A stretch of 64,000 nucleotides of DNA from Bryobacterales bacterium (GCA_963422375.2 OY729428.2:3456001-3520000); one strand, 5' to 3'; shown: positions 43,512-61,224, numbered from the stretch's first letter. Notes: generated from the sequence alone by a model not told the origin. A program made the numbers and translations.

Positions 43512-44693
43512 ATGGACATCACGCGCCGGCGCTGGGCCGTCGGTATGGCGGTCGCGGGCCTGGGCTGCGGCGCGAGCCGCGACGGCGGCTCCGAACCCGG
43601 GACGCCGGGCGACCGGGAGCGCGCCGGCGCGCTCCGCCCGGTGATCGACCTGCACTGCGACACGCCAATGCTCTTCCGCGACGGGGGCTACGACCTCGGC
43701 GCGCGGAACGAGCGCGGGCAGGTCGACATCCCGCGCATGCGCGAGGGCGGCGTGAACGCGGCGTTCTTCTCCGTCTACACCAGCGCCGCCCGGCGCAGCG
43801 AGCCGGAAGCCCTCCGCGAGGCACTCGAGATCATCGACTCGATCTATCGCGAGGCCGAGCGCTTTCCCGCCGACCTGGCCGTCGCGACGTCGACCGCCGG
43901 GATCGAGGCCGCGGTCCGCGAGGGCCGTATCGCCGTGCTGCTCGGGATCGAGGGCGGGCACATGATCGACAGCTCCCTAGCCGCGCTGCGCACGCTCTAC
44001 CGCCTGGGCGGGCGCTACCTGACGCTCACGCATAGCAAGGACACCGCCTGGGCGGGCTCCTCCGGCAGCGACGCCAACGCCGGCCTGTCGGAGTTCGGAC
44101 GCGAGGTCGTGGCGGAAATGAACCGCCTCGGGATGATGGTCGACATCTCTCACGTGTCCGACAGGACATTCTGGGACGCCTTGGCAGCGTCCGTCGCGCC
44201 GGTGATCGCGTCGCATTCCTCGGTGCGCGCCATCGCGGCGCACAAGCGGAACATGTCGGACGAGATGATCCGCGCCACCGCCGAACGGGGCGGGGTGGTC
44301 CACATCAACTACTACAACGCCTTCCTAGACGACGACTACGCTCGGCGGAGCCGGGAGTGGAACTCGGAGAACCCCCGGGCGGGCACGAGCGGCGTAGCCC
44401 GATTGCAAGCCAAGCTGGCCGCGATCGGCCGGCCCGCCATCGACGTGCTCCTCGATCACCTCGAGCACGCCGTCCGCGTCGGCGGGATCGAAGCCGTGGG
44501 CCTGGGATCGGACTTCGACGGCGTGGACGGCGAGTTGCCGGCCGGAATGGAGGACATCTCGAAAGTCCCGAATATCGCCGCGGGCCTGTCCGCGAGAGGC
44601 TTCAGCGACACGCAGGTCGAGAAGGTGCTGGGCGGGAACTCGCTGCGAGTCTTCCGGGACGTGGAGGCCGCGGCCCGGGCGGCAGCGGCCTAG
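43512..44693 (+). CDS. Membrane dipeptidase (M19) with Tat-like signal
   Basis: TRRRW, DLHCD, GIEGGH, LTLTH, DISH, SHS and GLGSDFDG. Confidence 0.93.
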   Translation: MDITRRRWAVGMAVAGLGCGASRDGGSEPGTPGDRERAGALRPVIDLHCDTPMLFRDGGYDLGARNERGQVDIPRMREGGVNAAFFSVYTSAARRSEPEALREALEIIDSIYREAERFPADLAVATSTAGIEAAVREGRIAVLLGIEGGHMIDSSLAALRTLYRLGGRYLTLTHSKDTAWAGSSGSDANAGLSEFGREVVAEMNRLGMMVDISHVSDRTFWDALAASVAPVIASHSSVRAIAAHKRNMSDEMIRATAERGGVVHINYYNAFLDDDYARRSREWNSENPRAGTSGVARLQAKLAAIGRPAIDVLLDHLEHAVRVGGIEAVGLGSDFDGVDGELPAGMEDISKVPNIAAGLSARGFSDTQVEKVLGGNSLRVFRDVEAAARAAAA

Positions 44694-45535
44694 ACGAGAC
44701 CCGCCGGATTCGACAGCGTGCCGATTTCCGGCACCCGGATGGAGCAGACGTCGCCGGGCTGCAGCGCGGCCTCCTGCCCGACGATGATCCCCGTGCCGGT
44801 CAGCACGACCGTGGGGGTCGGCAGGGCGTTGCTGCGTCGGAGGTAGCCGATCAACTCCTCGAAAGTACGGCGCAGCTTGTCCGTCGAGACGCTGCCCTCG
44901 AACGTGGACCGGCCGTTGCGGCTGATCGTGCAGGACATGCTCAGAGAGTAGGGATCGGGGACGTCGCCCGGCGTGACGAGCGCGGGACCGAGAGCGCAGC
45001 AGGCGGTGTAGACCTTCGACTGGGGCAGGTACAGGGCGTTTTCGCGCTCGATGTCCCACGCCGAGACGTCATTGCCCAGCGTGTAGCCCAAGATCGCGCC
45101 GGTGGATCCGATGACGACGGCCAGTTCGGGCTCCGGCGCGGTGAACGTGGAGTCCCGGCGAATGCCGATCATCTCGCCCGGGCCCACGCAGACGCGGGCG
45201 GTTCCCTTGAAGAAGATCTCGGGACGGTGGCCCTGCTTGTGGACGTAGGAGTACATGCCGTCTGTCGTCCCGAGCTCGCCGTCCCGGAAATCTGCGCTGG
45301 GGGCGTAGGTACAGCCGCAAGCCCACACTTCGGCGGGCCGCAGGGGCAGCAGCGCCGCGCCCTGCACGAGCTCGCCCGTGGCGCGACCCGCCACCAAGCT
45401 CTCCACGGTCCGGCCGCTCGCGTCGGCCTCCTCCAGCAGCGCGTTCACGGTCGTGCCCGGCAAGGTCAGGTATCCGCCCTCCCGCTGCAGGGCCGCAAGG
45501 GTCTCGCCCCCATGCGAGACTTGCGCCAGCTTCAT
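44690..45535 (-). CDS. Fumarylacetoacetate hydrolase family protein (2-keto-3-deoxy-pentonate dehydratase-like)
   Basis: EVWACGCTY, RPEIFFKG, PEPEL, GNDVSAWDIERENALYLPQSK and LTGTG. Confidence 0.9.
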   Translation of the reverse strand: MKLAQVSHGGETLAALQREGGYLTLPGTTVNALLEEADASGRTVESLVAGRATGELVQGAALLPLRPAEVWACGCTYAPSADFRDGELGTTDGMYSYVHKQGHRPEIFFKGTARVCVGPGEMIGIRRDSTFTAPEPELAVVIGSTGAILGYTLGNDVSAWDIERENALYLPQSKVYTACCALGPALVTPGDVPDPYSLSMSCTISRNGRSTFEGSVSTDKLRRTFEELIGYLRRSNALPTPTVVLTGTGIIVGQEAALQPGDVCSIRVPEIGTLSNPAGLV

Positions 45536-45633
45536 CGAACCACCCTCCAGATTACATGGTGGCACAGGCCCGCCGGCCGCCGCGGGACCGGCGACCAGCG
45601 GAGCGGACGCAGCGGACGGGCCGGCCAAGCACC

Positions 45634-47913
45634 CTAGGCCGAGCCCAAATCGAGCCGGTAGGCACTCTTCCCGATCCGCACTACGTCGCCGCTCCCCGCC
45701 CGCAAGGGCCTGTACGGCTCCGCGTCGAGCGCGCCGAGGCGCGTGCCGCAGGTGGAATCCAAGTCCTCGATCCAGATCGCCCCGTTCTCGAGCCGGAGTC
45801 TAAGGTGGCGCCGCGATACATTCAGGTCCCGGAGACTCACGTCGCACCGATTCCTTCCCCGCCCGACCACAAGCCCCTCGGGCGACATCAAGAGACGCGG
45901 GTCCAAGGGAATTCGGCCCGAGCCGTCGAGCGGGACGAGCGCGGCGGCCACCGCGGGAGCGGCCCGCCCGATCGGAACCAAGGCCGGGCCCTGGCGGTTC
46001 ACCGGCGCGGGGACCGGCGGCGGGGAGGCGGACGCCCGGCGCCGCGCCTGCATCGGGGATGAGAGCGCCCAGCCGGCTAGGGCCGCGACCACCAGCAGGG
46101 CGAGCGCCGCGCCGATCCACGCGCTTGCCCTCGAGTCGCCCGGGGGCCTGCCCGGCCCGCCGGGCGAGTCCTCCGGCGGTTCCGCGTGCGGGGGCGCGGG
46201 GCCGGGCACGGTCGGAGGCGCTCCCCCTCCGGCAACAGGGTCGCGGGGCGGCGCCGAGGCTCCCCTGCCGCCACCGCTCCGGGAGACGGTCTCCCCTTCC
46301 TCCGGATCCGATATGCCGTCCGGATCGGGAGCCGCCGGGAGAACCCACGTGCCCGGCACGCCGACCGCGTCCATCGCCTGGTGGGTCGAAACCCATTCCC
46401 GCGAGCCTTCGCCGTGCAAGAGCTCCGCAGCGAGGGCGAAACCGAAGCGAGCGTCGCCGAAGCTGGAGTTCGGCGTCAGGAGGTGAACGGCCGCGCGCCC
46501 GACTATCTCCAGAGCCTTGGCCATGCCAATACCGACGACCGCGGGGCCCGATCGCCGGTCAGGGTGCCGCCCGCCCGCCGCGAGCAAGTAAAGGCCTTGG
46601 TTCATGATCGAAGAGTTGACATGCACGCCGCCGTGGTCCTCGTGCATCCACCGGTAATCGCTGTAGTGGTTGGGCATGCGGCCGACCCGGCGGGGATTCT
46701 GCAAGTCGCGGAGCGGCCCGGCGGGCGACCGCAGGCGCCAGATCTCGTCCGGTATATCCAAGTCCAAGCGCCCTCGCGTCTCCAGCCACGCTCGAAATCC
46801 CGCGCCAAGCACATCGGAGATCGATTCGCCAAGCGCGCCGGGCTCGTCCCTTCCGATGAGACCGCTCCCGCTTTCGACGATCCCGTGGCCGAGCTCGTGG
46901 CCGATGACTTCGGGAAACTTCGAGCCTTCGTCGGTGACCGCCAGCAGCCGCTGGCCGCTGTACCAAACCGCATTGAACTGGTCTCCGTCGCATTGGGGCC
47001 ACGTGTAGGGATTGTGGAACTTCACGCCTACCAGCCCCTGCAAGGTCCCGCCGCGTCCGTCGAAGCTGTCCATTTGCAGCGTCGTGCGGAGATACCCGTG
47101 AAACTCGCCGAACAAGTCGAAGACGGCGTTGACGGGGGCGCGAGACGACCGGCCGGTGGACTCGCTCCTCCCGAGATGCCCCGAGATCGCCCTCATGACC
47201 AGGCGAGTCGAATCGCCAATGTCCAGCGGACGACCTCTTCCGTATCCCCTGCAGGCGTCCTCAAAGTCGTAGATCCGCCGGTCAACCGCCGTGAATTCCA
47301 TGGGAAGGCGCTCGATGACGCGGCCCGAGCGGGCGTCGAGGTAGACCCGCTCGAAACGCGCGCCCGACGGGTTCGCGAACGCACCTTCGACCTCGTAGGC
47401 GAGCACGAGATCGCTGCCCGCCGGCCAGAACACCAGCCTCTGCCCGAGAACGCGTTGCGCGGGCGAGCCGGAGGCCCGGATCGCCGCGGCGAGTCCGAGC
47501 CGCGGCTCGGACCGAGGGAGGCCCAGAAACGGGTCATGCCGGCCGAGCAGGCGCGCCTCGGGGCGGTCGTCCGCCGCAACCAGGCGGGACTCCCGATTGA
47601 TCACCGGCAGGCCGCCGGCGAACTGCCTGAGAGTGAAGACGGTGCCGCGCCCGAGGCGCGCGGGTTCCGGCTCGACCAGCAGGCGGTCGGTCCGCTCCAG
47701 TCCGAGCAGGCGATGCAGCTCCCGGTTCGCCCAGCGCTGCACGGCTGCCGCATCCGCGAGGCCCGGAGGGGCCGGGACAGACAGGACCTCGGCCTCCCGC
47801 GCGACGGCGCCGCCCTCCTGGCCGCGCGCCCGGTCCGCCCCGGCCGCGAAGGCGAGCATCGTGCCCAGCCCGATGCCGGCGACGCACCGGCCCCGCCGAC
47901 TCCGGGAAGCCAT
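45634..47913 (-). CDS. M4 (thermolysin-like) metalloprotease fused to a TM helix and FHA domain
   Basis: Signal peptide; FTP/PepSY propeptide; NAVW, HELGH, GALGESISD and GGVHVNS; Pro linker; TM AWIGAALALLVVAALAGW; FHA VGR..D..VSRRH..EDLDSTCGT. Confidence 0.88.
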   Translation of the reverse strand: MASRSRRGRCVAGIGLGTMLAFAAGADRARGQEGGAVAREAEVLSVPAPPGLADAAAVQRWANRELHRLLGLERTDRLLVEPEPARLGRGTVFTLRQFAGGLPVINRESRLVAADDRPEARLLGRHDPFLGLPRSEPRLGLAAAIRASGSPAQRVLGQRLVFWPAGSDLVLAYEVEGAFANPSGARFERVYLDARSGRVIERLPMEFTAVDRRIYDFEDACRGYGRGRPLDIGDSTRLVMRAISGHLGRSESTGRSSRAPVNAVFDLFGEFHGYLRTTLQMDSFDGRGGTLQGLVGVKFHNPYTWPQCDGDQFNAVWYSGQRLLAVTDEGSKFPEVIGHELGHGIVESGSGLIGRDEPGALGESISDVLGAGFRAWLETRGRLDLDIPDEIWRLRSPAGPLRDLQNPRRVGRMPNHYSDYRWMHEDHGGVHVNSSIMNQGLYLLAAGGRHPDRRSGPAVVGIGMAKALEIVGRAAVHLLTPNSSFGDARFGFALAAELLHGEGSREWVSTHQAMDAVGVPGTWVLPAAPDPDGISDPEEGETVSRSGGGRGASAPPRDPVAGGGAPPTVPGPAPPHAEPPEDSPGGPGRPPGDSRASAWIGAALALLVVAALAGWALSSPMQARRRASASPPPVPAPVNRQGPALVPIGRAAPAVAAALVPLDGSGRIPLDPRLLMSPEGLVVGRGRNRCDVSLRDLNVSRRHLRLRLENGAIWIEDLDSTCGTRLGALDAEPYRPLRAGSGDVVRIGKSAYRLDLGSA

Positions 47914-47917
47914 GCAC

Positions 47918-49468
47918 TCAGCGAACTGCCGGGCGACCGGTCTGGAGCACCAGCGGCTCGCGGAACAGGACCGCACCAGTTGCAGGATCCAGGATCACGC
48001 GCTCGGAGCCACGCCCCGTAGCGACACTACCCGACCAAGCGACGACGTCCGTTCGCCCGTCCATCCGGACGACCACGAGCGAACCCTCGTCGAGCGGATC
48101 GATGTCCTCTCCGCTCGCCCGTTCCGCCAGGGCCACCGTCTCCGGGTAATCCCTCGCGGGCGGGCCGTCAACCTCAATCCGGGACGCAAGATGGCCGTCC
48201 ACGCGAATCACGCGGCTCCCCTCGGTCGTGGCAACCACTTCCGCGGCGAACACCGGCATTCCCTCGTGAGTCTGGCCGAAGCGTGAAACGGTCGTCCCGC
48301 CGATGCGGCCCGGACTGCCCTTCGGCGCGAGCGTGTCCGCGGGGCCGATCCGGCCCGCCTGCCGCAATTCGTCCTCAATCGCGCTCGCGAGGGATTCCCC
48401 GGTCTTCAGCCTCCTGTCCAGACTGACGTGCAGGCTGTCGATCGGCACGGGAGAGCCCGGCCCGCCGCCGGACTCGCTGCGCCCGCCCGATTCCGACGCC
48501 CCCTCGGCGGGGGAGGCGCCGCCCTCCCGACTACCGCCCTCCCTTGCTCCGGCCCCCTCCCGGCCCTCGGCTTGGGCCGCCAGGGAGTAGCTCGGGCCCG
48601 CCCCGCCGGCGAAGAGCGCGGTCGCGCGGCCCGCGGCCGAGGTCGCCTGGCCGCGGGCGTCCCGACCGGCCGGCAGGAGCGCCGCGGCGAGGCCCGCGCC
48701 AACGAGAGCGGCCAGCGAGAGCCAGTACCACGCGACGCGGGGCCCCGGATCGATCACCGCGAGAATCGCCGTGGTGTTGTCATGTCGCTCGAGCTCGGCC
48801 AGCTTGCCCTCGTAGGCCGCGGCGACGGCAGTCCCCGGATCGGCGGATTCGAACAGCGCGACGATCTCGCCGTCGGAAAAAATCTCCCAGAAACCGTCGC
48901 TGCAAATGACGAAGCGAGTGCCGCGCGCAAGGCGCCACCGCTTGAATTCCGCGTCCGGAGGGGCCTCGCCTCCGACGTGGGTCAGCAAGTGCGTCTGGCT
49001 CGGGTGCGTGGCCAGCTCGGCCTCCGAGATCGCGCCGCGCAGCACGTTCAGCTGCGCCATGGAGTGGTCCAGGGTGCGCACGGCGAGGCCGGCCCGCGAA
49101 TACTGCATGACGCGGCTGTCCCCGGCATGGACCGAAACGGCCTCGGAGCCCCGCACCAGCAGGGCGGCGAGCGTGGAGCGCGGATCGAGACCCGCCGCCC
49201 TGCCCGCAGCGTTGACCCGCTCGTGGCACTGGCTCACCAAGGATCGCAGGAAGTCCTCCGACCGCCAGTCGCGTCCGCGCCGGGCCCAGAGATCGGCGGC
49301 GGTGTCCACGACAGTCTGCGCGGCAAGCGAGCCGCCGCGATGACCGCCCAGCCCGTCGGCAACCAGGAACAGGGATCCGTCGCCATCGCCGGACCGCAGA
49401 ACCGTCAACCGATCCTGGTTCTCCTGCCTCTGCCCGACGTGGGTGAAGGCATGGGCGGTTGCGTTCAC
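47918..49468 (-). CDS. PP2C Ser/Thr phosphatase fused to a TM helix and FTP/PepSY propeptide-like domain
   Basis: RQENQD, VADGLGGH, HAGDSR, DHS, CSDG and DNTT; TM WYWLSLAALVGAGLAAALL; C-terminal RFGQTHEGMPVF and RVILDPATGAVL. Confidence 0.85.
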   Translation of the reverse strand: MNATAHAFTHVGQRQENQDRLTVLRSGDGDGSLFLVADGLGGHRGGSLAAQTVVDTAADLWARRGRDWRSEDFLRSLVSQCHERVNAAGRAAGLDPRSTLAALLVRGSEAVSVHAGDSRVMQYSRAGLAVRTLDHSMAQLNVLRGAISEAELATHPSQTHLLTHVGGEAPPDAEFKRWRLARGTRFVICSDGFWEIFSDGEIVALFESADPGTAVAAAYEGKLAELERHDNTTAILAVIDPGPRVAWYWLSLAALVGAGLAAALLPAGRDARGQATSAAGRATALFAGGAGPSYSLAAQAEGREGAGAREGGSREGGASPAEGASESGGRSESGGGPGSPVPIDSLHVSLDRRLKTGESLASAIEDELRQAGRIGPADTLAPKGSPGRIGGTTVSRFGQTHEGMPVFAAEVVATTEGSRVIRVDGHLASRIEVDGPPARDYPETVALAERASGEDIDPLDEGSLVVVRMDGRTDVVAWSGSVATGRGSERVILDPATGAVLFREPLVLQTGRPAVR

Positions 49469-49508
49469 CGGCGTTCCCCTCGCATTCTTGCAAACCCGCC
49501 GCGATCCC

Positions 49509-50621
49509 TCAGATCCCGAGAATGGCGAGCAGCACGCTGCCAGTGAAGGATTCCCCGCCCGCGGCGTCGACGAATTGGCCTTTGCCTACCTGCGCAAGCT
49601 GACGCAGGAACAAGTCGGCCTTCCGGCGATCTCGGTTGTTGTCGTTCAGGTTCGCCCTGACTGTGGAGACGAATTGGCCCGGGCTTGATGCGAACAGCTG
49701 GGCTGCCCGAATCGCGGCCGCCTCCCTGTCCGGATACGCCGCGTTGTCCGTGATCGCGATGACGTAGCGGCGCTCGCTCTCGGGTCTCCAGTTGGAGTTG
49801 ATCGCCATCTCCACGGCCGTCGCAACCATCTCGGGTCCGTCCCTGTTGAGTCTGTTCCTAGTTCGGTCCATTTCCGGCCTGAGCGTGGAGACGAACGAGC
49901 GGACCTCGGCAAGACGGGACGTCGGGACAATCCTTCTCTCGTAGATCGGCGGGACCCATGTGCGGTCACCGAACGCGATGACCCCGATGCCTACGGACGG
50001 GGCCAAGCTGTCCAGGAGCTGTGCCAGCGTCCCGATTTCATTCTTCAGGCCCGCGATCTGGTCGGTCATGCTGGAGGTCACGTCGAGGCAGATCACGAGG
50101 TCCATGTCGGGAATCCGGGCTTTTGCGAGAGCGGCCTCCAGTTCGCTCACATTCTTCCGCGATTCCGCGAGGCTGGCCTTGATCTCGTCGACTTCCCGCT
50201 CGAGGGCCCGTTCCCTAGCGAGGTTGCCTGCCTCCTTCTTCCTGCCCGCCTCTGCGGCCTTCCTGCTCGCCTCTGCCGCGGCCAGGACCTCCTGAAGTTC
50301 CGCGATCTTCTGCTGGGCTTGCTCGACTTGGGCGAGAGCTTCGTCCAGGGCTCCGGCCAGCGCATCGCTGTCTTCGGCGTCGCTCCGCACTTGCGCCAGC
50401 ACGGCCTCAAGGCTGCGCGCCCTCTCCGCGACACGGTCGCGGTCCCGGATCGCTTGGGCCAGCTCCGCCTGCACGGCCTCGACCTGGTCGCGCGAGTCAC
50501 CGGTATTCGGGAAGAACGGCAAGGCCATGATCGACAGCAGGATGAACGCGCCCATGCCTGAGGCGAACAGGTCCAGCGCTGAGATGGAGAAGACGTTGAG
50601 TTCTCGCCGACGAAATGTCAT
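49509..50621 (-). CDS. Membrane-anchored coiled-coil vWA domain protein
   Basis: RRRELNVFSISALDLFASGMGAFILL TM anchor; about 130 aa coiled coil; MIDAS-like DLVICLDVTSSM, DGPE and ITD. Confidence 0.85.
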   Translation of the reverse strand: MTFRRRELNVFSISALDLFASGMGAFILLSIMALPFFPNTGDSRDQVEAVQAELAQAIRDRDRVAERARSLEAVLAQVRSDAEDSDALAGALDEALAQVEQAQQKIAELQEVLAAAEASRKAAEAGRKKEAGNLARERALEREVDEIKASLAESRKNVSELEAALAKARIPDMDLVICLDVTSSMTDQIAGLKNEIGTLAQLLDSLAPSVGIGVIAFGDRTWVPPIYERRIVPTSRLAEVRSFVSTLRPEMDRTRNRLNRDGPEMVATAVEMAINSNWRPESERRYVIAITDNAAYPDREAAAIRAAQLFASSPGQFVSTVRANLNDNNRDRRKADLFLRQLAQVGKGQFVDAAGGESFTGSVLLAILGI

Positions 50622-51284
50622 GGCCCCGTGCCGGGTTGCAACCGCCTCGTCATCTAGCGCCCCCGTCGAAGTCACGCCCGGGAGGGCGCGACGCCAAGCC
50701 GCGACTGCCTGCTCGACCAGCCAAGCGCCGAGCCTTGAGCTCGGTCGAGCAGGCGGGACGCACCGGTTTCCGAGTTTCCGCTTGGCACCATTGTGCGCAC
50801 CAGGACCGGGTCCCGCTGATTCGGCTCGCGGAACCGGCAGACGCCCGCATGGACCCGAAGCCGGAGCGCGTCGCCGCCAGGGGACCGGACCGGAATTCCG
50901 CGAATGGCGAGTCGAGCCCGCCTCGAAGGGGCCCGGCTACTTCGCCGGCAGTGCAAGCAGCGGGTCTCCTCCGCATGGAGGCGGCCGCGCGACGGCTCCG
51001 CCTGAACTGACACAGCGCCATCGCGACCTTTACGCTGCCACGCAGATCTCTGGCTCGGCCCGGCACTCGACCATCCCCCTTCAAGACGCACCGCACTGCG
51101 AGACGGTTTCTCAAGGGACTGCCCTGGCTTGGGACCTCGGACAGTCTGGGCTGGCGGCAGCAAGACGGACTCGAACGACCAACGCCGGCCCGGCGAGGAT
51201 CCAGTCGGCCTCTCGCGAAGCGGCGCTAGAAAGGATGTGTACGCAGAATCGGCGGCCGGTGCGTCTGATGGCACCGAGACCGGA

Positions 51285-53942
51285 ATGTCGCAGACGGGCC
51301 CCGAAGAACGCGGTCATCGCGCCGCCCCGCTCCCAACCGGACCGGATGCTCCGGAATCCGGCGCGGCGGAGGACTCCGGCCCGCCGACAGACGCCTACCG
51401 GCGCGGGCCGTACCTGCCCCCCGGCACGGTACTGAACCGGGCGTACGCCACTCGGTCCGTAGTGGGACAGGGTGGCTTCGGCGTCGTCTACGAAGCCACG
51501 CACTTGCAGCTGGAGCATCCGGTAGCGATCAAGGAGTACTTCCCGGAGGAATTCTGCGTCCGCGTGGGCGATGCCGTCCATGCCAAGAGCACGGTTGCCA
51601 AGGCTTGTTTCGACGACGGCATGAAGCGCTTCCGCGAGGAAGCGAAACGCCTGATCGAACTCAGGGGCTCGCCCAACGTCGTGGCGTATCGAGAGTTCTT
51701 CCTTGAGAACGGCACAGCCTACATCGTCATGGACTTCGAGGACGGCATGCCGCTGTCGGAACTTCTCGCGAGGCGGGAGGCGGCGGGCCGGGGATTCGAG
51801 GAGCGCGACCTAGTCGCGGTCATGGTTCCCGTGCTGAGAGGCCTGCAGAGGCTACACCAAGCCGGCATTTTCCACCGCGATGTCAAGCCCGGGAACATCC
51901 TGATCCGACGCAGAACCGAGCAGGCCGAGGAGGTTCCTGTCCTGATCGATTTCGGCGCGGCGAAGCAAGCGTTCGCCGAGCACTCCAGGACGAACGCACC
52001 GCACACCCCCGGGTACGCGGCCCTCGAGCAGGTCGGGGAAGGGGATCTCGGACCTTGGACAGACGTGTACGCGGCGGGGGCCGTCATGTGGCGAATGGTC
52101 GCTTGCGGGAGCTCCGCAAGCGGCTCCGATGGTCCCGTGCGTGTGGAGAGCCGGGTGATGGCGAGGTTGCGCGGGCGACCCGATCCGATGCCTAGGGCAG
52201 TCGAACTCGGGCGAGGGCGATTCTCTCCGAGACTTCTCGAATTGATTGAACAGTGCTTGGAGTTGAGGGAGTCCGACCGCGTAAAAGATTGCACTAAAGT
52301 CCTGCAAGTGCTCCAATCTATTCACAGAAATAGAGGTCCAGATTCCGGTTTAATAGATCTGAATATTCGTAACGATTGGACTGCTAAATCGGCAGTCTAC
52401 AATATGGATATGGACACCAAGTCAAGCGGAATATGGCGGTCAAAAATAATGGCATTAGCGCTTGTATTTGCAGTGATAGGATGCGTAGAATCAGCGGTTA
52501 TAATCAAGAATTCATGGCACGACTCGACCCGGACTGAGGCAGCCGACTCGACACCTTCCACGGTGGGGAGCGGAAACAAAGCAACGGACCTGCCGACTTC
52601 CTTGCCAGCGAAGTCCCAGGGAAAATCCTCGTCTGCGCCGAGCATCCCAAGCTTTAGAGTCGAAGTCGAACCTTCGGATGCCGCTGTGTTCTTCTCCAAC
52701 GAGGCTCAACCGTACACGGCGGGAATACCTCTGGCCCTAGGGACGTACGAGCTCGATTTCCGAGCCGTCGGGCACCAGCCTCTGAGTACGTCAATCCAGC
52801 ACGACGGGTCGGGCACGGTGCCGAGAGTCGCATTGCAGTCTCTGGAAGTGCCGCCGCTCACGCCAAGGGCTCGGAGCCCCTTCAAGCCGACTGTTCAGCC
52901 TCGCCCCGCAGAGGCCGCGCAGCGGCCGAAGCCCGGACAGGATCCCGAGCAGTCCAGACCGGCTTCCACGGACATACTCGGCACCGGCCCATCCAATGCG
53001 TCGACAGCTCCGAACACGCAGGCGATTCATGCCGGGCCAAGCCCGTCCGCTCTCCCGCCCGAGGTCGATCCGGCACCTGCCGCGCACGTCGTGCCGCCGA
53101 CCGTCGCCGAGCCGGACCTCGGCGAACTGGCGAAGGACGCATGGCAAGAAGCGAGGGATTCAGACAGCCCGGAAGTCCTGGGAGCTTTCATTGACACATT
53201 CGATGGCAGGCGAGGTGCCAGTCTCTGGGTCACACTGGCAAAGGACCGCCTAGCTAAGCTGCCGGCGTCGCCGGTGGCTCCGACGAACGCGCCGGTGCCC
53301 CCGAAGCAGCCGATTCGCATCGGAGGGAACATCGCAAGGGCCCGACTCACGCACCAGATCCGGCCGCGCTATCCTCCGCACGCCCGGCAGGCTCGTGTCG
53401 AAGGCACAGTCAAACTGTCGGCAATCATTGCACGGGACGGGACGGTCCAGAGTCCTCAAGCTACCTCCGGCCACCCGCTCTTGATCCCAGCGGCGTTGGC
53501 CGCCGTCAAGCAGTGGCGCTATCGGCCGACCCTGCTGAACGGAGTGCCCGTCGAGGTTCTCACAAGCATCGAATTGAATTTCACGTTGGGGGACAGGCCT
53601 GATACAACGACCCCGGACAAGAGGCAGTCTCCAAGTCCAAGGCCCGCTCCGAGGCTCGATCAGCCCAAGCGAGACTTCACCAAGCCGCAGCTAGCGGTTC
53701 AGGTCAAACCGTCGTACCCAATGACCGCTCGCCGGGCGCGAGTGGAGGGCACGGTTAGACTCCGCGTGACCATTGCAAAGGACGGAACAATCAAGGAGGC
53801 TAGGGCCATGTCAGGTCATCCTATTCTGGTGCAATCTGCGGTCAATGCAATGAAGAAATGGCGTTACTTTCCGACAATAAAAAACGGAATTTCCGTCGAT
53901 ATTGTCACGAATATAGACGTTAAATTCGAACTGAATCCATGA
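51285..53942 (+). CDS. Ser/Thr kinase with a TM helix, PEGA-like segment and two TonB C-terminal domains
   Basis: GQGGFGVVY, AIKE, HRDVKPGN, DFG and TPGYAALEQ; TM IMALALVFAVIG; two P.YP..AR.ARVEGTV...SGHP.L...A.K.WRY.P repeats; start inferred. Confidence 0.9.
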   Translation: MSQTGPEERGHRAAPLPTGPDAPESGAAEDSGPPTDAYRRGPYLPPGTVLNRAYATRSVVGQGGFGVVYEATHLQLEHPVAIKEYFPEEFCVRVGDAVHAKSTVAKACFDDGMKRFREEAKRLIELRGSPNVVAYREFFLENGTAYIVMDFEDGMPLSELLARREAAGRGFEERDLVAVMVPVLRGLQRLHQAGIFHRDVKPGNILIRRRTEQAEEVPVLIDFGAAKQAFAEHSRTNAPHTPGYAALEQVGEGDLGPWTDVYAAGAVMWRMVACGSSASGSDGPVRVESRVMARLRGRPDPMPRAVELGRGRFSPRLLELIEQCLELRESDRVKDCTKVLQVLQSIHRNRGPDSGLIDLNIRNDWTAKSAVYNMDMDTKSSGIWRSKIMALALVFAVIGCVESAVIIKNSWHDSTRTEAADSTPSTVGSGNKATDLPTSLPAKSQGKSSSAPSIPSFRVEVEPSDAAVFFSNEAQPYTAGIPLALGTYELDFRAVGHQPLSTSIQHDGSGTVPRVALQSLEVPPLTPRARSPFKPTVQPRPAEAAQRPKPGQDPEQSRPASTDILGTGPSNASTAPNTQAIHAGPSPSALPPEVDPAPAAHVVPPTVAEPDLGELAKDAWQEARDSDSPEVLGAFIDTFDGRRGASLWVTLAKDRLAKLPASPVAPTNAPVPPKQPIRIGGNIARARLTHQIRPRYPPHARQARVEGTVKLSAIIARDGTVQSPQATSGHPLLIPAALAAVKQWRYRPTLLNGVPVEVLTSIELNFTLGDRPDTTTPDKRQSPSPRPAPRLDQPKRDFTKPQLAVQVKPSYPMTARRARVEGTVRLRVTIAKDGTIKEARAMSGHPILVQSAVNAMKKWRYFPTIKNGISVDIVTNIDVKFELNP

Positions 53943-54090
53943 GATAGTCTCTTTCATATGCTTTATATAGTTCTTGTGACAGAACGCACAAGCCCTTAGT
54001 TTCCGGGCAGTTGCAGCAAGTCCGTGGGACGAAGATCGGGCCGATCCGGGTCGGCTTGCGCGTTTCCGGGGGTTGTGCGACAATCTTCGT

Positions 54091-54217
54091 CCTGATTACC
54101 CACAAGACTCAGCCAAGGTTAGGAGGCGGTAAGGCATGGGTGGGGTGCGCACGGAGGCGTGGAGCAGGCGGGGGACCAGCGCCTCCAGATCGTGGCGGCG
54201 TCTTGTGGGTAATCGGG
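54091..54217. mobile_element. 127-bp MITE-like derivative of the IS1595 at 56148-57180
   Basis: Starts CCTGATTACCCACAAGAC (as at 56148), carries the transposase 3' end (PRLLHASVRTPPMPYRLL) and ends in an inverted copy GTCTTGTGGGTAATCGGG. Confidence 0.75.
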
Positions 54218-54565
54218 AAGATTGCCGCGCTTTGGGCCCTCGCACAAGGGCGGCAGTTGCACGATGCCGAGGCCCTCGAGCGCCGCCAGCAGGCGCAGGG
54301 CCAGCTGGACGCGGCTGTTGCCCCCGGGCGTCTGCCAGCGTAACTGCTCGCGGATCGTATGGCGCAGCTCGGTGCGTCTGAGGGCCGGGAACGTCTCCAC
54401 GGTTTCCTAGACGCCGGCGATCTGCTTGCGCGTCAGGCGGCACCCGAAGAAGGTGGTCGACTGAGCTTCTCGATGCGTGGGTCCATGCGATCCTGCTGCC
54501 GGGCTCGGCCATAGAATAGGCTGGCGAACGGCTCCGAAGAAGTCAGGTCCGTGTCGAGAAATTGT
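54218..54565 (-). pseudogene. N-terminal remnant of a DUF4338-type (IS4-like) transposase
   Basis: QSTTFFGCRLTRKQIAGV*ETVETFPALRRTEL..TI.EQL.W.TP.G.....L.LL..LE.LG...LP. Confidence 0.6.
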
Positions 54566-54628
54566 GGGAATCTTATACCCGAGTTCCGAGGCAACCGATT
54601 TGGCAAATTATCAATCCATAAATGAATT

Positions 54629-56139
54629 GGGAATTATATATCTGAGTGCCGACAACGCCATATCCGACTAGAACTGCTGTGAGCAGGGAGGTGGGTGTCG
54701 AGCTGGGGTCATGCGAGTGCGGCCGCGGCGGGCACAGAGGGGGGGTGGGGGGTGGGATCGTATCTGAATCGAGCCTGCCAGCGGATTGGACGAGGAAGGG
54801 ACTAGAGAGGCCGCCTCGCATGCCCCGGTGAAACCCGGTTGGCGGTGGCAGGGCACCCCTTGCAAGCCGCTTGCAGGCCCTGCGAGGGCCGAAGACAGCG
54901 GATCCCCGGCGCTCGACGGCCTGCATGGACGGTCCGGGCCGGACCGGGGTCGCGCCGGGGCATTCCGGATCCGGTGCGACCCTCGTACCGAGCGTGCAGC
55001 GCGCGCCCGCAGCGGGCTGCCGCGCTCGGCGCGGCGGGCGCCGCTCAGGCCGCGACCGCGGCCTTGCCGGTCAGCTGCCGGTAGGTCAGCGTCCGGCCGA
55101 CCAAGCCCCGCGCCATGCGCCGCATCCGTTCCGCCGTGTCGCAGTCGCGGTCGTTGCGCCGTCCCGCGAACTCCGTGAGGTAGCGGCCGAGATGACGGAC
55201 GCTCATCCGGTGATAGGTTCCGTACAGGCCGCGCTCGAACAGGGACCGGAACGACTCGATGCCGTTCGTATGCGCTGCCCCGCGCACGTACTCGCCGCCG
55301 GAGTGCCTGACGGCTTCGTGCGCGAACTCCGCCATGCCGGCGCAGGCCGCCGCCTCGTCGGAGCGGACCTGCGCGCCCGGCGCGACCCGGCCGCGCACGA
55401 AGCCCTGCAGGTCGCCCTTGGCGGTGGCCGGCAGCGGCCGCGCAGCCACTGCGTTCGTGGCGCGGTCCCGCGCCCCCGCCACGGGCGTCTTGCCGACGGG
55501 CCCGCGCCCGGCGCGGGCCTTCTTCCTCTCGTGCTTGTTGCGTTCCTTGCCGCCGACGCAGGTCTCGTCCACCTCCACCGGGCCGGCGAACAGGCCCTGA
55601 TCCCGCTCCCGGCACGCGCGGATGCGGTGCGCCAGGTGCCAGGCCGACTTCCGGCTGATGCCCGGGTCGCGGTGCAGCTTCATGCTCGAGACGCCCTTGA
55701 TGCCGGTGGTCGGCAGGAACAGGGCGACGGCCCGGGTGCGGTAGCCGAGCTTGGTGTCGGCCATCACGCTGCCGGTGCGCACCGAAAAGCGCTTGCCGCA
55801 GCCGCGGCAACGGTACGGCATCGAAGGGTGGGCCGCGTCGGACTGCACGCTGGAGCCGCGGCAGCGGGGGCACGCGGGACCGTCCGGCCAGCGCATGGAG
55901 GCGAACCACTTTTCCGCGGATTCGTCATCGGGGAACATGGCGATCACTTCGATCAATGTGATGCCTTTACGGAACCACTTTCCGGGACCTGATTTCTTCA
56001 TTTACGGTATCCCCTACTGGAACTATTCTACCAAGAAATACCACAGAATTTCAACGGAAAATCGGAAGAAATATGAAATCTTATAATGGCTTGATAATTT
56101 GCCGACTTGATTCCCTCGGCACTCAGATATATAATTCCC
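54629..56139 (-). mobile_element. IS1595-family element; transposase at 55045-56001
   Basis: Perfect IR GGGAATTATATATCTGAGTGCCGA; 8-bp TSD AATGAATT (54621-54628, 56140-56147); zinc ribbon, EVDET, SDE and HTNGIES. Confidence 0.93.
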
Positions 56140-56147
56140 AATGAATT

Positions 56148-57180
56148 CCTGATTACCCACAAGACTCAGCCAAGGTTAGGAGACGGTAAGGCATGGGCGG
56201 GGTGCGCACGGAGGCGTGGAGCAGGCGGGGGATCAGCACCGCCAGATCGTAGCGGCGGTTGAAGCGGTAGCAGAACTCGGCGAGGTAGCGCGGCAGGTGC
56301 TTGCCGTCGAGTGCATGGCAGGTTCCCGCCAGGGACTGCTTGACGTTCGCCAGCATCGTGTTGACCCGGACGAAGCGGGAATCCCCGCAGCTCCGCTGCC
56401 CACCTGCGGTGACGGTCGGCACGTGCTCGCAGCCGGCGTCGGCCACGCCCCGCAAGCAGGCCAAGCCGTCGGAATGCACCTCCGTGCCGGGCTGCAGGTG
56501 CCGCCCGGCCCATGCTGCCAGCGTCTTCTTGCGGAAGCCCGCCACGCTGCTCAGGCGCATCCTTGCCGGCTGGCCGGCGGCGCTGACCTGCACGGCGGCC
56601 ACGAACGGCGTCTTGCCCGCCGCGCCGCGCCCGCGCTTGTCGCCGCTCCGCTCCCCGCCCCGGTAGGCGTCGTCCACCTGCACGATGCCGCCCGGCGGCA
56701 CGCGCTCGTCGCGCTCCTTCATCACTTGCAGGAGCTTGTGCTTCATCTTCCAAGCCGTGTTCCGGCTCACGCCCAGCTGCCGCGCCAGTTCCAGCGACGA
56801 AACGCCGTGCTAGCCCTGCGTCAGCAGGTGGAGCGCCAGGAACCAGACGGTCAGCGGCAGCTTGGTGGCGGCCAAGATCGTGCCGGCGACGAGGGAGGTC
56901 CGGCGGTGGCAGGCGTTGCACTGCCAGAGCTTGCGGGAGCGGATGCGGCAGTGCCGGCGGGAGCCGCACTCCGGGCAGCGGAAGCCGTCCGGCCAGCGGG
57001 CGTTGCAGACGGCCTGCTCGCATGGCCCCTCGCTGCCGTAGCGCTGCAGGAACTTGCCCAGGCTGAGTCCCTTCTGGAATTGCACGCGATTGCGTTTCAT
57101 CTGCTATCCCCTTTCCTAGCAGAGATTTCCGACCTCCTTCAGTATAGCATATCCTCGGCTGACGTTCGTTGGTAATCAGG
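56148..57180 (-). mobile_element. IS1595-family element of a different subgroup; transposase 57100 to 56153 with a premature stop
   Basis: IR CCTGATTACC; TSD AATGAATT (56140-56147, 57181-57188); NRVQFQKGLS, RWPDGFRCP, QVDDAY, HSDG and YLAEFCYRFNRR; stop at 56810-56812. Confidence 0.93.
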
Positions 57181-58488
57181 AATGAATTTGATATTTATTC
57201 CGGAGATCTGTTGACAGTCAGTGGATATTCTTGATGGAATAGTTCCAATATAGGAGGTCTTCGTTGAAGACTTCGAAGCAGAACGGTCCCGGGAAGTGGT
57301 TTCGTAAAGGCATCACCTTGATCGCAGTGATTGCCATGTTCCCCGATGACGAATTCGCGGAAGAGTGGTCCGCCTCTATGCGCTGGCCGGACGGTCCGGC
57401 ATGCCCCCGCTGCCGCGGCTCCAGCGTGCAGTCCGGCGCGGCCCACCCTTCGATGCCGTACCGTTGCCGCGGTTGCGGCAAGCGCTTTTCCGTGCGCACC
57501 GGCAGCGTGATGGCCGACACCAAGCTCGGCTACCGCGTCCGGGCCGTCGCCATGGTCCTGCTGACCGCCGGCCTCAAGGGCGTCTCCGGCATGAAGCTCC
57601 ACCGCGACCCGGGCATCAGCCGGAAGTCGGCCCGGTGGAAGTGGACGAGACCTACGTCGGCGGCAAGGAGCGCGACAAGCACGAGAGCAAGAAGGGCCGG
57701 GCGCGGGCCGGCCGGCAAGACCCCCGTGGCGGGTGCGCGGGACCGCGCCACGAACGAAGTGGCCGCCCGGCCGCTGCCGGGCACGACCGAGGGCGACCTG
57801 CAGGGCTTCGTGCGCAGCCGGGTCGCGCCGGGCGCGCAAGTCCGCTCCGACGAGGCGGCGGCATACGCCGGCATGGCGGAGTTCCCGCGCGAGGGCGTCA
57901 AGCACTCCGGCGGCGAGTACGTGCGGGGGACCGCGCATACGAACGGCATCGAGTCATCTTGGTCCCTGTTCAAGCGCGGCCTCTACGAAACCTATCACCG
58001 GATGAGCGTCCGTCACTTGGGCCGCTACCTCGCGGAGTTCGCGGGACAGCGAAACGCCCCCAACTGCGACACGGCGGAACGGATGCGGCGCAAGGCGCGG
58101 GGCTTGCTCGGCAAGACGCTGACCTACCGGCAACTGGTCGGCAAGGCCGCGGTCGCGGCCTGAGCACGGCCTTGCCGGTCCGCTGCGGCCTCTCTTCACG
58201 CTCAGCGCGAAGGGCGCTCCGGATCCGGAATCCCGCGCCGCGACCGCAGTCCAGCCCGGACAATTCCTACAGGCAGCCGGCCTGGAAGGGGAGCCTCTCC
58301 ACGGCAAACCGGGTTCCACCGGGGCGTCCGAGGCGGCCCCTCTAGTCCGTGCGCCTAGCCGGATATGGCGTCGTCGGCAATCAGATACATAATTCCCCTA
58401 GGAAACTGGTGCCCTAGCCCGCTCCATCCGCATCCCGGCGGTCTACCGCCCCGGGGATGCCGCGACGCTTCCCGTCGGGCGGCTCGGC

Positions 58489-59829
58489 CTACGGAGCAAG
58501 CGTGCAGGCGGCGCTCGGCTGGCTCGCAAGGACTCTGCTTCCCGGCACTCCGCCGTACGACAGTGGCTGCGGCACGCTCGCGAACTCGCCCACCGCCTTG
58601 AACAGCGGTCGGAAGTCCCGGTCCAAGTTGCCAATGAGACAGTCCGTCACGTCCCCGCGCAGATCCGGGTAGCGCCTCAGAAGGGCCCCGAAACTGAACG
58701 TCTCGTCGTAGAAGGCGTAGACCAGCTTGCGCATCGCCTCGATCCCCCTGCAGAGATCCGCGCCGTACTCCTTGAACCGGGACGCGCTAACGTCGCCCGC
58801 ACGGAGAGCCGCGTCGGCGGCGTGGGCGGCCCGCTCGCCGCCGAGCAGAGCAAGCAGGACGCCGGACGAGAAGACGGGGTCGAGGAAAGTGAAGGCGTCC
58901 CCCGCCAGCACGAGCCCGTGCCCTGCGCAGTAGCGCGACCGGTACGAGTACTCGGCCGTCACGCGGATCGGCTCGCAGCGATTCCCTTGCGCGAGGTGCT
59001 CCTTGATCCACTCGTTCGCCTGAATCTCGCGGCACCAGACCCGCTCCAAGTCCTTGCCCTCGCGGTACAGGTAGTCGCGTTCGGCAACCACGCCGACGCT
59101 GACCAAGTTGTCAGGGAGCGGGATGTACCAGAACCAGCCCTTCTCCGGCAGGTAGGCGACCGTAGTCGCACCCTCCCTGAGCCCCTCGTCCCGCATCGCT
59201 CCGTGGTAGTAAGTCCAGATGGCGACCTTGTTCAGCTCCGGGTCGGGCACGATCCAGCCCAGCTGCGTCGCGGCGAATCCGTGGCGGCCACCGCAGTCGA
59301 TGGTGACGGGCGCCCGCAAGGGGAAGGCTTCGCCGTCACGCTCGACCAGAAGGCCCTCGCACGCGTCACCGTTCATAAGGAGCCGCCTGGCCTTGGCCCC
59401 CATCATGGTGCGCGCGCCCTTCCTGACGGCGTTCTCGAGCATCATTCGGTCGAACTCGCTGCGCACCACTTGCCACGTCTGCGAGGCGGGATGGTCGAAG
59501 TGCTGGTGGAAATAGAAGGGCGCCGAAACCCTGCCGTCGATCAGCACGAACTGCACGCTGTACTTCTTCACGAAGCTCGAGGCGCGCAGCTTCTCGATCA
59601 TCCCGATGCGCTCCAAGGGGAAGTAACAGTAGGGCAGCAGAGACTCGCCGACCTTGTAGCGCGGAAAGCGCTCGCGCTCGACGACCAGTACCCGCCTGCC
59701 CTTGTCCGCCAGCACGGCCGCCGCCGTGGCACCGGCCGGGCCGCCGCCGAGGATCAGGACGTCGCAATCCGCCGGGGAGGATCGAGCTCCGCGCTCTCCC
59801 GCCGCCCCTTCGGCGCTGCCGTCACGCAT
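58489..59829 (-). CDS. Flavin-dependent halogenase-like FAD oxidoreductase
   Basis: GGGPAG, FPRYKVGESL, VKKY (candidate catalytic Lys), GWFWYIP (WxWxIP) and GDAFTFLDPVFSSG. Confidence 0.87.
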   Translation of the reverse strand: MRDGSAEGAAGERGARSSPADCDVLILGGGPAGATAAAVLADKGRRVLVVERERFPRYKVGESLLPYCYFPLERIGMIEKLRASSFVKKYSVQFVLIDGRVSAPFYFHQHFDHPASQTWQVVRSEFDRMMLENAVRKGARTMMGAKARRLLMNGDACEGLLVERDGEAFPLRAPVTIDCGGRHGFAATQLGWIVPDPELNKVAIWTYYHGAMRDEGLREGATTVAYLPEKGWFWYIPLPDNLVSVGVVAERDYLYREGKDLERVWCREIQANEWIKEHLAQGNRCEPIRVTAEYSYRSRYCAGHGLVLAGDAFTFLDPVFSSGVLLALLGGERAAHAADAALRAGDVSASRFKEYGADLCRGIEAMRKLVYAFYDETFSFGALLRRYPDLRGDVTDCLIGNLDRDFRPLFKAVGEFASVPQPLSYGGVPGSRVLASQPSAACTLAP

Positions 59830-61159
59830 ATCGGATGTTCGTGTGCTCGGGCAGGAAAAAGGCGTGCAGCAGGCGGTCGACCTGCAGCAGGCCCTCGCGG
59901 GTGAGGTCTATGCGGTCGCTGTCGAAATCGAGCATGCCGTGCCTTTGGAACAGCGCCAGTTCCTCGCCCCAGCGCTCGGTCACGTTCACGCCGAAGCGCT
60001 CCGAGAACTGTCGCGTGTCGAGGTGCCCGAGCTTCAATTTCAGAACGAACTGCCGGATCATCGCCTCCTGCGCGGTGACCGGCAGGGCCCGCGAAACCGG
60101 CAGCGCACCCGACGCGAGCCTGTCCAGATAAGGCTGCATGTGAGGCTCGTTCTGGTAGTGAACGCCATCTAGGTAGCCGAAGGCGGAAACGCCCAGCGCC
60201 AGCATGTCCGCTCCGTCCCACAGCTTGTCGCGATACACTAAGCGGATCGTCGACGAGTCGCGCACCGCGGTATAGGCGCTGCCTACCGCATAGCCTTGCG
60301 CCTCCAGCGCGTCGAACGCCTCGCGCGTCCAGCGCCGCTTGGTCGGCCAGTCGGCCACGGGCGCGGCCGCCGCGCCCCGCTCCCGCATGCCCTTGTAGAT
60401 GGTGGTGTTCAAGGGGATCTCCATCTGATAGACGGTGACCGCGTCCGGCGCGAGGCGCACCGTCTCCCCGACCGTGCGCGCCCACTTGGCGTCCGTCTCG
60501 CCCACCATGCCGGCGATCAGGTCGAGATTGACCTGATCGAACCCGGTCCGACGCAGCCAGTCCCAGGCGCGATAGATCTCCATGGAGCGATGCGCCCTGT
60601 TGTTCGCCGCCAGGATTTCGTCGTCGAAGTTCTCCACCCCAAGGCTGAGCCGGTTCACTCCGAAGCTGCGGATCGTCCGCAGCTTGCGCTCGGTCAGCGT
60701 CCCCGGCTCGCACTCGAAAGCCACTTCGCTGGGCTCGTGCCATGGCAGAGCCGCGCGCAGCCCTTCCATCAGCCGCGAGAGCTGCTTGCCGGAAAGGTAC
60801 GACGGCGTGCCTCCGCCGAAATAGATGAAATCGAGCTGCCGCCCAGATAGGAAAGGCTGGCGGGCAGCCAGCCGCGCCTCCCGCAGCAGCGCGTCCAAGT
60901 AAGCCTCGATCTCCGCGTGGTTCTTGTCCGTATAGACGCGGAAGTAGCAGAAATCGCAGCGCTTGCGACAAAACGGCAGGTGGATGTACAGGCCGAGCGG
61001 CGTCTCGGGCCGCCCAGGCCGCCCGAGCCGCTCCACGGCGCTGGAGGTCTTCTCCCGCCGCCAGACCGAGAACGGCGGGTAGTTGGAGACGAAGTAGTTC
61101 CCTGCCTGCGTGAGGTCCTGGCCGGACAGCACCGCCAGCGAATCAGATGCCTGTGCCAT
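59822..61159 (-). CDS. HemN-like (class C) radical SAM enzyme
   Basis: YFVSNYPP, LYIHLPFCRKRCDFCYF (CxxxCxxC), YFGGGTPS, RLSLGVE and NLDLIAG; overlaps the halogenase start by 8 bp. Confidence 0.92.
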   Translation of the reverse strand: MAQASDSLAVLSGQDLTQAGNYFVSNYPPFSVWRREKTSSAVERLGRPGRPETPLGLYIHLPFCRKRCDFCYFRVYTDKNHAEIEAYLDALLREARLAARQPFLSGRQLDFIYFGGGTPSYLSGKQLSRLMEGLRAALPWHEPSEVAFECEPGTLTERKLRTIRSFGVNRLSLGVENFDDEILAANNRAHRSMEIYRAWDWLRRTGFDQVNLDLIAGMVGETDAKWARTVGETVRLAPDAVTVYQMEIPLNTTIYKGMRERGAAAAPVADWPTKRRWTREAFDALEAQGYAVGSAYTAVRDSSTIRLVYRDKLWDGADMLALGVSAFGYLDGVHYQNEPHMQPYLDRLASGALPVSRALPVTAQEAMIRQFVLKLKLGHLDTRQFSERFGVNVTERWGEELALFQRHGMLDFDSDRIDLTREGLLQVDRLLHAFFLPEHTNIRYA

Positions 61160-61224
61160 GCGCGAGAGTGCCCGACTGGGATCCCACCCTATTCTGACAC
61201 GCCATCCAGACTTGGACGGGACGG

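Follow-up and report, generated by a model that had tools for sequence, protein, structure and literature searches.

Four adjacent genes (F, H, I and G) of a Bryobacterales bacterium, found in the 64,000-nucleotide stretch of DNA analysed here (the window), are half of a conserved nine-gene bacterial inner-membrane system. We lean slightly towards an account in which a trans-membrane latch links the activity of a protease to local dephosphorylation, and the most likely role of the system is the regulated sensing and destruction or remodelling of cell-envelope proteins. An earlier, sequence-only reading had proposed that a kinase/PP2C/FHA system spans the envelope and is coupled to a tethered M4 protease and to TonB domains. 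The first part of this proposal is upheld by the recurrence of the gene set and by the charge bias around the membrane segments, whereas TonB as the defining input is not, as it occurs in only 4 of 40 kinase tails.

The locus in the window

45634-47913, minus strand: gene I (759 aa from ATG; 780 aa from GTG 47976), signal peptide, own FTP/PepSY propeptide, thermolysin-family M4 domain, Pro-rich linker, TM segment, cytoplasmic FHA domain
45670-45870, minus strand: FHA domain of I (PF00498, E 2e-11)
46060-46116, minus strand: C-terminal TM anchor of I (hydropathy 2.21)
46885-46899, minus strand: HEXXH zinc motif of the M4 domain
47918-49468, minus strand: gene H (516 aa), PP2C-TM-propeptide protein
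47921-48451, minus strand: periplasmic FTP/PepSY propeptide of H (residues 340-516), predicted in-trans clamp
49509-50621, minus strand: gene F (370 aa; 388 aa from GTG 50675), trans-pore helix with Asp17, coiled-coil stalk of ~120 residues, vWA domain with MIDAS
50622-51284: divergent intergenic region, no channel gene or remnant detected
51285-53942, plus strand: gene G (ATG 51285 preferred; TTG 51129 as alternative, 937 aa), Hanks Ser/Thr kinase, TM segment, Pro-rich linker, two TonB_C domains
54050-58300: cluster of multi-copy IS elements, IS1595/ISXO2-like (Pfam DDE_Tnp_IS1595), at the kinase 3' end; right limit from the ORF list

ORF and Pfam analysis recovered all four genes described earlier, with the divergent kinase and the domains as stated, and the minus-strand operon is indeed tight, its gaps measuring 4 bp (47914-47917) and 40 bp (49469-49508) with ATG starts. 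Hydropathy placed one strong TM segment in each product, in agreement with the proposed membrane anchoring. Correct as to the genes, the earlier description was nevertheless incomplete, since it missed the motor-type Asp helix of the vWA protein, the protease's own propeptide and five distant partner genes.

Peptidase_M4_C, FHA, PP2C_2, VWA_2, Pkinase and two TonB_C domains scored above the Pfam cut-offs across the four proteins; FTP in H fell just under (20.7 vs. 21). No curated NCBIfam family exceeded its cut-off for F, H, I or for the partner proteins B and E introduced below. The intergenic region 50622-51284 is present once in the genome, and neither six-frame translation nor Pfam (blank for three overlapping ORFs) revealed a channel gene or its remnant there. 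Positions 44500-54049 are covered, with zero differences, by a single contig of sequencing run X3, which may be the source data, and are matched piecewise, again with zero differences, by run X5 from a separate study.

Judged from the charges that flank the TM segments, the kinase, PP2C and FHA domains lie inside, as had been claimed for a cytoplasmic writer/eraser/reader set, H being the weaker case. In I, the K/R excess lies on the C-terminal side in 40 of 44 homologues and on the opposite side in none, which places FHA inside; the same bias puts the N-termini of F and of the kinase inside. For H, 37 of 59 homologues were charged as predicted and 12 in the opposite sense, including the copy in the window. 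H-I fusions fix the PP2C of H and the FHA of I to one side of the membrane, with two TM segments between them.

A recurring set of nine genes

Loci of named genomes, metagenomes and relatives defined nine recurring genes:

Gene A: small FHA protein
Gene B: MotA/TolQ/ExbB-like channel
Gene C: FHA protein
Gene D: soluble PP2C
Gene E: trypsin-like-coil-TM-FHA protein, trypsin domain catalytically dead
Gene F: Asp-helix-coil-vWA protein
Gene G: receptor kinase
Gene H: PP2C-TM-propeptide protein
Gene I: M4-TM-FHA protein

Homologue searches yielded a family of full-length PP2C-TM-propeptide proteins and 45 proteins of the M4-TM-FHA family, 11 of them PP2C fusions. At 18 other loci of I (not counting the fragment L171 and an identical duplicate in G062), B lay within 32 kb in every case and at ~13 kb or less in 17; F was present in 17, all of A-F, H and I in 16, and a full kinase domain in 15. 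The locus profiles were built partly from the same loci, but these had been discovered with H or I alone. The earlier concern that the genes might not co-occur elsewhere is answered by this recurrence. As to the samples, 20 of the 80 loci from the named-genome search were mapped, 3 were set aside as the same contigs as G001, G007 and G027, and the remaining 57, which matched the PP2C domain only, stand outside the counts; the metagenome search gave 50 loci, of which 5 full-length ones were used and 45, matching mainly the catalytic domain, were not counted.

When 61 related genomes were searched, the same nine matched B, F and full-length I; these nine are kin and not independent. Presence is patchy (9 of 31 genomes of the genus vs. 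0 of 30 others). The named carriers span Bryobacterales and Gammaproteobacteria, and include Bryobacterales MAGs, Alishewanella tabrizica, a SAR86 MAG, Ca. Azophilus and an 'Enterobacteriaceae' MAG; H occurs additionally in Thioalkalivibrio. Counter-examples are H without I or B (L017/G065) and the broken copies of G020, L011, L012, L089 and L171. At three further sites (L176, L177 and L178, in G004, G002 and a second site of G007) gene A adjoins a TM-FHA gene, the rest of the system being absent.

A single M4 protein used as the query against genome contigs gave no match. The propeptide profile, when run against longer proteins, retrieved three known H proteins only and missed the fusions already known, so that this search is uninformative. 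Over 301 Alishewanella-family genomes, the profile gave weak matches in 15 (E 1e-8 to 1e-12, open frames of 507-1888 aa), probably ordinary pro-M4 proteins, and missed Alishewanella's own divergent H (21 bits unfiltered).

The split copy

In the genome under study, A-E are intact at G000:C2:2,789,340-2,793,674 (= L001:5343-9674), ~714 kb from F-H-I-G. A 2-kb multi-copy IS lies ~290 bp upstream of gene A. The IS cluster at 54050-58300 is the probable breakpoint of the split; parts of 53941-55100 have more than 100 copies in the genome, with a jump of depth in the reads, and in the relatives G007 and G027 the position at the kinase 3' end is occupied by A-E. As the divergent layout of the kinase and F-H-I is common to G007, G015 and G027, with A-E nearby, the split seen here would be a later rearrangement. 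At L001:11914-16819, the place that H-I takes in other loci, a second gene I is represented by an orphan TM-FHA tail, and another kinase-PEGA-2xTonB_C gene is present.

Owing to the 714-kb split, the IS elements at both sites, a long branch and two active-site substitutions unique to this protease (see below), the copy may be decaying. These features, except the branch, together with the orphan tail, also speak for the reading that the four genes are a non-working remnant of an IS-driven rearrangement, which would concern this copy only and is compatible with our main account. We consider it doubtful, as none of the nine ORFs is interrupted or truncated in the genome, the zinc ligands and the catalytic Glu and His are retained, and the kinase-F-H-I block has the same divergent layout in the three relatives.

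Two further observations were made in the window: an unrelated kinase with a PD40 beta-propeller tail lies 5 kb from the locus (37761-40544), and, judged by eye, a flavin-halogenase-like ORF overlaps a HemN-like radical-SAM ORF (58489-61462).

A putative motor formed by B and F

The membrane helix of F carries an Asp of the ExbD/MotB type, which is kept in 123 of 123 motif-bearing homologues among 150 representatives; MIDAS is kept in 142 of the 150. As this trans-pore Asp is invariant, F is predicted to be the inner subunit of a TolQ-type motor. Its structural model consists of a helix of ~120 residues followed by a vWA fold (top fold match BatB, E 6e-9), so that the 'stalked vWA' described earlier was right about stalk and fold and overlooked the motor-type helix.

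B, whose gene lies outside the window, has 269 aa and three TM segments, with PF01618 above cut-off, and its Thr residues T178, T184, T224 and T225 are invariant in 12 of 12 sequences. The nearest folds to its model (pLDDT 74) are TolQ/ExbB (TM-score 0.41-0.55), the best at E 2e-3 and all above E 0.001; the sequence itself had 0 matches in the PDB at E 1. No tolR or exbD gene occurs among the annotated genes of L159, L018, L016 and L001. Most loci contain one F gene, and two near-paralogous copies are present in G007, G017 and G027. Taken at the level of sequence and fold, these data strongly suggest that B and F form a motor, predicted to be a proton-driven 5:2 assembly, the vWA head of which would reach across the periplasm.

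Putative 5:2 motors made of a TolQ-like channel and transpore-helix vWA proteins (TPH-vWA) have been predicted by Williams-Jones et al. 2025 (PMC12204202). As far as the consulted parts of that paper go, they share with B and F a TolQ-like channel with a Thr ring, no tolR/exbD neighbour and a vWA protein with an Asp-bearing transpore helix. They differ in that heterologous vWA pairs predominate, though they are not obligatory, whereas one vWA gene is usual here. In the available main text 'kinase' and 'protease' have 0 matches and the sole 'fha' is FhaC, the supplement at hand holding nothing relevant. The motor class is thus already known, as a prediction only, and the new part is the phosphatase-borne propeptide. 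The worry that the locus is a fragment of a described system therefore applies in part: it is half a system, of which the motor class alone had been predicted in the text consulted (PMC12204202). Our literature search, in which most subscription papers were outside coverage, returned this motor prediction only; neither the complete system nor any PP2C-propeptide protein was described there. For this predicted class of ion motors, the M4 variant offers an assayable output, a zinc protease.

A sister cluster in Gammaproteobacteria (L221:8611-13582, L237:5894-12892) comprises a PEGA/FGE protein, a TolQ-like channel and two vWA genes, without kinase or FHA, and in Ca. Azophilus a second B-F pair (L216:11929-13985) has a stalk of Cys/Pro repeats and lacks phospho genes in its vicinity.

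The tethered protease

The PDB search with I returned thermolysin (E 5e-48) and the MCP-02 propeptide, and PF02868 scored 110 bits; the signal peptide was judged by eye and from homologue hydropathy. The M4 domain, TM segment and FHA of the tethered thermolysin-like protease described earlier were thus all found. Every one of the 32 aligned rows keeps H339, E340, H343, E363, D367, R402, D426 and H431, which comprise the zinc ligands and the catalytic Glu, His, Asp and Arg. The protein in the window is the sole copy among these rows with Gly at two sites, which we take, by thermolysin numbering, to be the equivalents of Tyr157 and Asn165; the other 31 rows keep the Tyr. In the consulted part of PMC7851659, Tyr157/158 of M4 enzymes is the transition-state Tyr. 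The FHA domain retains G-R and S-x-x-H in 29-31 of the 32 rows, and the Asn of its N-G-T motif is kept in 11 of 44 homologues only and is absent here.

There is strong reason to think that I autoprocesses to a membrane-anchored zinc protease. As I possesses its own signal peptide and propeptide, the propeptide borne by the PP2C protein is a second one.

A propeptide on the phosphatase

The PP2C metal-site residues Asp38, Asp117, Asp191 and Asp230 of H are invariant (39 of 39). A homologue profile of its outer domain matched, in the PDB, only M4 propeptides (6 sequences, best E 1e-9), which bears out the M4-propeptide-like domain noted earlier. In M4 pro-enzymes, the terminal residue of the propeptide coordinates the zinc. 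By the alignment, the last residue of the MCP-02 propeptide chain after processing falls four positions beyond the conserved Pro of H. Among the 61 motif matches in 88 proteins examined, 10 tails end on this processing site and 49 within 7 residues after it, none earlier. The PepSY motif printed in PMC7851659, so far as that source was available, stops at the same place as the MCP-02 chain.

The model of the H propeptide in complex with M4 scored 0.91, against 0.24 for the best control, at a mark that 116 of 157 solved pairs reached vs. 2 of 215 mismatched pairs; the runs agree in at least 85% of contacts, the partner pLDDT is 91, and the interface contains H 504-512 and the zinc and catalytic residues of M4. 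As it resembles the solved pro-enzymes 3nqy, 8cr3 and 5a3y, the model may show likeness only and is no proof of binding. Common to these pro-enzymes (MCP-02, pro-elastase and thermolysin, respectively) and to H and I are the propeptide and catalytic domains, the zinc motif and the position of the propeptide C-terminus. Unlike them, I is anchored by a C-terminal TM segment to a cytoplasmic FHA domain, and a second propeptide is carried by a separate phosphatase.

In H-I fusions, 13 of 13 propeptides are of the H type (131-204 vs. 40-56 bits with the H and I profiles). A quick version of the propeptide tree separated the H and I types into two clades (SH-aLRT 99), the fused ones being nested in H with at least two origins. 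On this evidence, the H propeptide appears to have been repeatedly taken over by evolution as I's own in-cis propeptide. We rejected the idea that H and I are a single gene split by a frameshift, since each carries its own propeptide, in separate clades.

From the model, with independent support from the fusions, we find it likely that the H propeptide clamps the active site of I in trans. It could be instead that the propeptide is a folding chaperone or docking module for I, not an inhibitor, and that H merely positions its phosphatase, given that M4 propeptides both fold and inhibit (PMC7851659, in the part consulted) and that many H tails extend beyond the processing site and could be cut; this is improbable, because I retains its own propeptide in split loci, the modelled interface takes in the H tail and the catalytic residues, and every tail reaches at least as far as the processing position.

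Which protease fills the slot

B was matched in 26 of 400 genomes sampled from the class of Alishewanella, in 8 strongly (one genome was unscored, and the unpublished G104 is counted only among the 26). The M4-FHA gene is absent from all 7 new genomes with a strong match. Five of them encode a trypsin-TM-FHA protein with intact His and Ser motifs, in two cases beside a dead paralogue; in the other two the contigs are too short to tell. Conversely, all examined M4 loci with an E gene contain the dead trypsin form only. The constant element would thus be an active periplasmic protease joined to an FHA domain in the cytoplasm, with M4 plus H as one filling. One trypsin-type locus contains a vWA-FHA fusion gene (L232:4070-5515), and its F-like gene is without a recognisable vWA.

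The kinase and its exchangeable tails

G possesses every catalytic motif. The loci contain 47 family kinases, 40 tails of which were scanned (6 were too short and 1 lay across a boundary); FGE-like (FGE-sulfatase-like) domains were found in 12, Sel1 in 6, TonB_C in 4, PEGA only in 3, ankyrin in 2, RDD in 2 and no domain in 11. The claim that TonB C-domains are the defining input thus fails, FGE-like and Sel1 tails being commoner: TonB is one exchangeable sensor, outside the core of the system. The Ton system (TonB-ExbBD) was likewise dismissed as core input. A separate, resident tonB-exbB-exbD cluster exists (L008:11541-13729, C2:3.53 Mb).

The first TonB_C of G shares 72% identity with the TonB_C of the resident TonB, which is encoded 24 kb away, and GC3 of the kinase gene drops from ~0.8 to 0.36 around the TM segment (52300-52520) and to 0.42 at 53830-53942, suggesting that these two stretches are swapped segments; identity and GC3 both fit domain swapping in G. 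More kinases of the family are scattered in this genome (L002-L006), two with FGE-like tails, and one ORF in L002 has, by eye, the same tail behind a different, caspase-like N-terminal domain.

Comparison with known systems

The threonine-phosphorylation pathway of T6SS consists of PpkA, PppA and Fha, with TagR. The system described here has a membrane kinase, PP2C and FHA in common with it, and the FGE-like domain on 12 of 40 kinases presumably echoes TagR. The suggested link did not hold: PF05943 (TssC/VipB) was found in 0 of 37 family genomes, including this one, and in 10 of 24 others, the E. coli control being positive. A T6SS regulator was therefore rejected, the motor and proteases not being T6SS parts.

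Adjacent vWA, PP2C and kinase genes are also shared with the triads that we take to be those named TerY-P, but F has a membrane anchor, a motor helix and a stalk, and the PP2C is fused to a propeptide. The parallel drawn earlier falls because F is not a stand-alone cytoplasmic vWA protein and PADLOC gave no match to a TerY-P model. In such triads the genes stand side by side (PMC7159879, as far as consulted).

The Agl-Glt motor of Myxococcus, in the consulted part of PMC11761067, combines a TolQR-type motor, FHA-TM proteins, TonB-like C-domains and a vWA protein, all of them features of the present system. Identity was rejected since the loci lack the GltA-K outer-membrane set; furthermore, vWA is here the predicted inner subunit of the motor itself, and kinase, phosphatases and proteases are co-encoded.

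Proposed mechanism and alternatives

We suggest that the clamp of H holds the protease off and, by the same contact, parks the H phosphatase beside the FHA tail of I. The other steps are drawn more loosely. A ligand on the exchangeable outer domain of the kinase might raise phosphothreonine, and A, C, E and I might then, through their FHA domains, assemble the parts at the motor. Release of the clamp, or cutting of its tail, would turn on periplasmic proteolysis; the protease might cut envelope proteins held by vWA or by the pseudo-trypsin E, and loss of the nearby phosphatase might sustain the on-state.

A more specific version, which we put forward only tentatively, is a force-gated zymogen switch, in which kinase input assembles the complex and the M4 protease is freed when the proton motor pulls away the propeptide carried by the phosphatase. 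If true, a single act would start periplasmic proteolysis and remove the phosphatase from the FHA scaffold, amounting to a new bistable trans-membrane signalling with ion flux, Thr phosphorylation and proteolysis mechanically coupled, and with both the kinase sensors and the protease modules (M4 or trypsin) being interchangeable.

The same complex might serve as a Zorya-like defence against phages or competitors, the motor sensing envelope damage and the protease destroying incoming proteins. Zorya comprises ZorA with a long tail, ZorB with a peptidoglycan-binding domain and cytoplasmic effectors. The patchy presence among related genomes, the kinase arrays with swapped Sel1, ankyrin, FGE and TonB tails, the IS neighbours and weak ZorA matches for B are in line with defence. 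However, PADLOC gave only generic kinase, PP2C and coiled-coil matches, F has vWA in place of a peptidoglycan-binding domain, B is without a long cytoplasmic tail, and the cluster has no recurring nuclease or helicase gene; we regard a defence role as rather unlikely. Membership of Zorya itself was rejected on the length of B (269 aa), its ZorA score (18.7 vs. a cut-off of 500), the vWA end of F and the absence of effector genes.

Energised protein scavenging, with the motor pulling polypeptides through outer-membrane pores, the protease digesting them as food and phosphorylation as nutrient control, would suit the TolQ/ExbB-type fold, TonB_C on four kinases and broad-specificity protease families in the periplasm, but is improbable, as the loci have no recurring gene for an outer-membrane receptor or a peptide transporter, TonB_C is rare, and four FHA readers and two phosphatases would seem to exceed the control needs of uptake.

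Returning to the latch, a protease propeptide made as a separate membrane protein with a phosphatase is a control element absent from the literature searched. The repeated H-I fusions and the M4/trypsin swap show which parts are essential, and the complete, colinear locus in cultured Alishewanella tabrizica (L018) makes the system testable.
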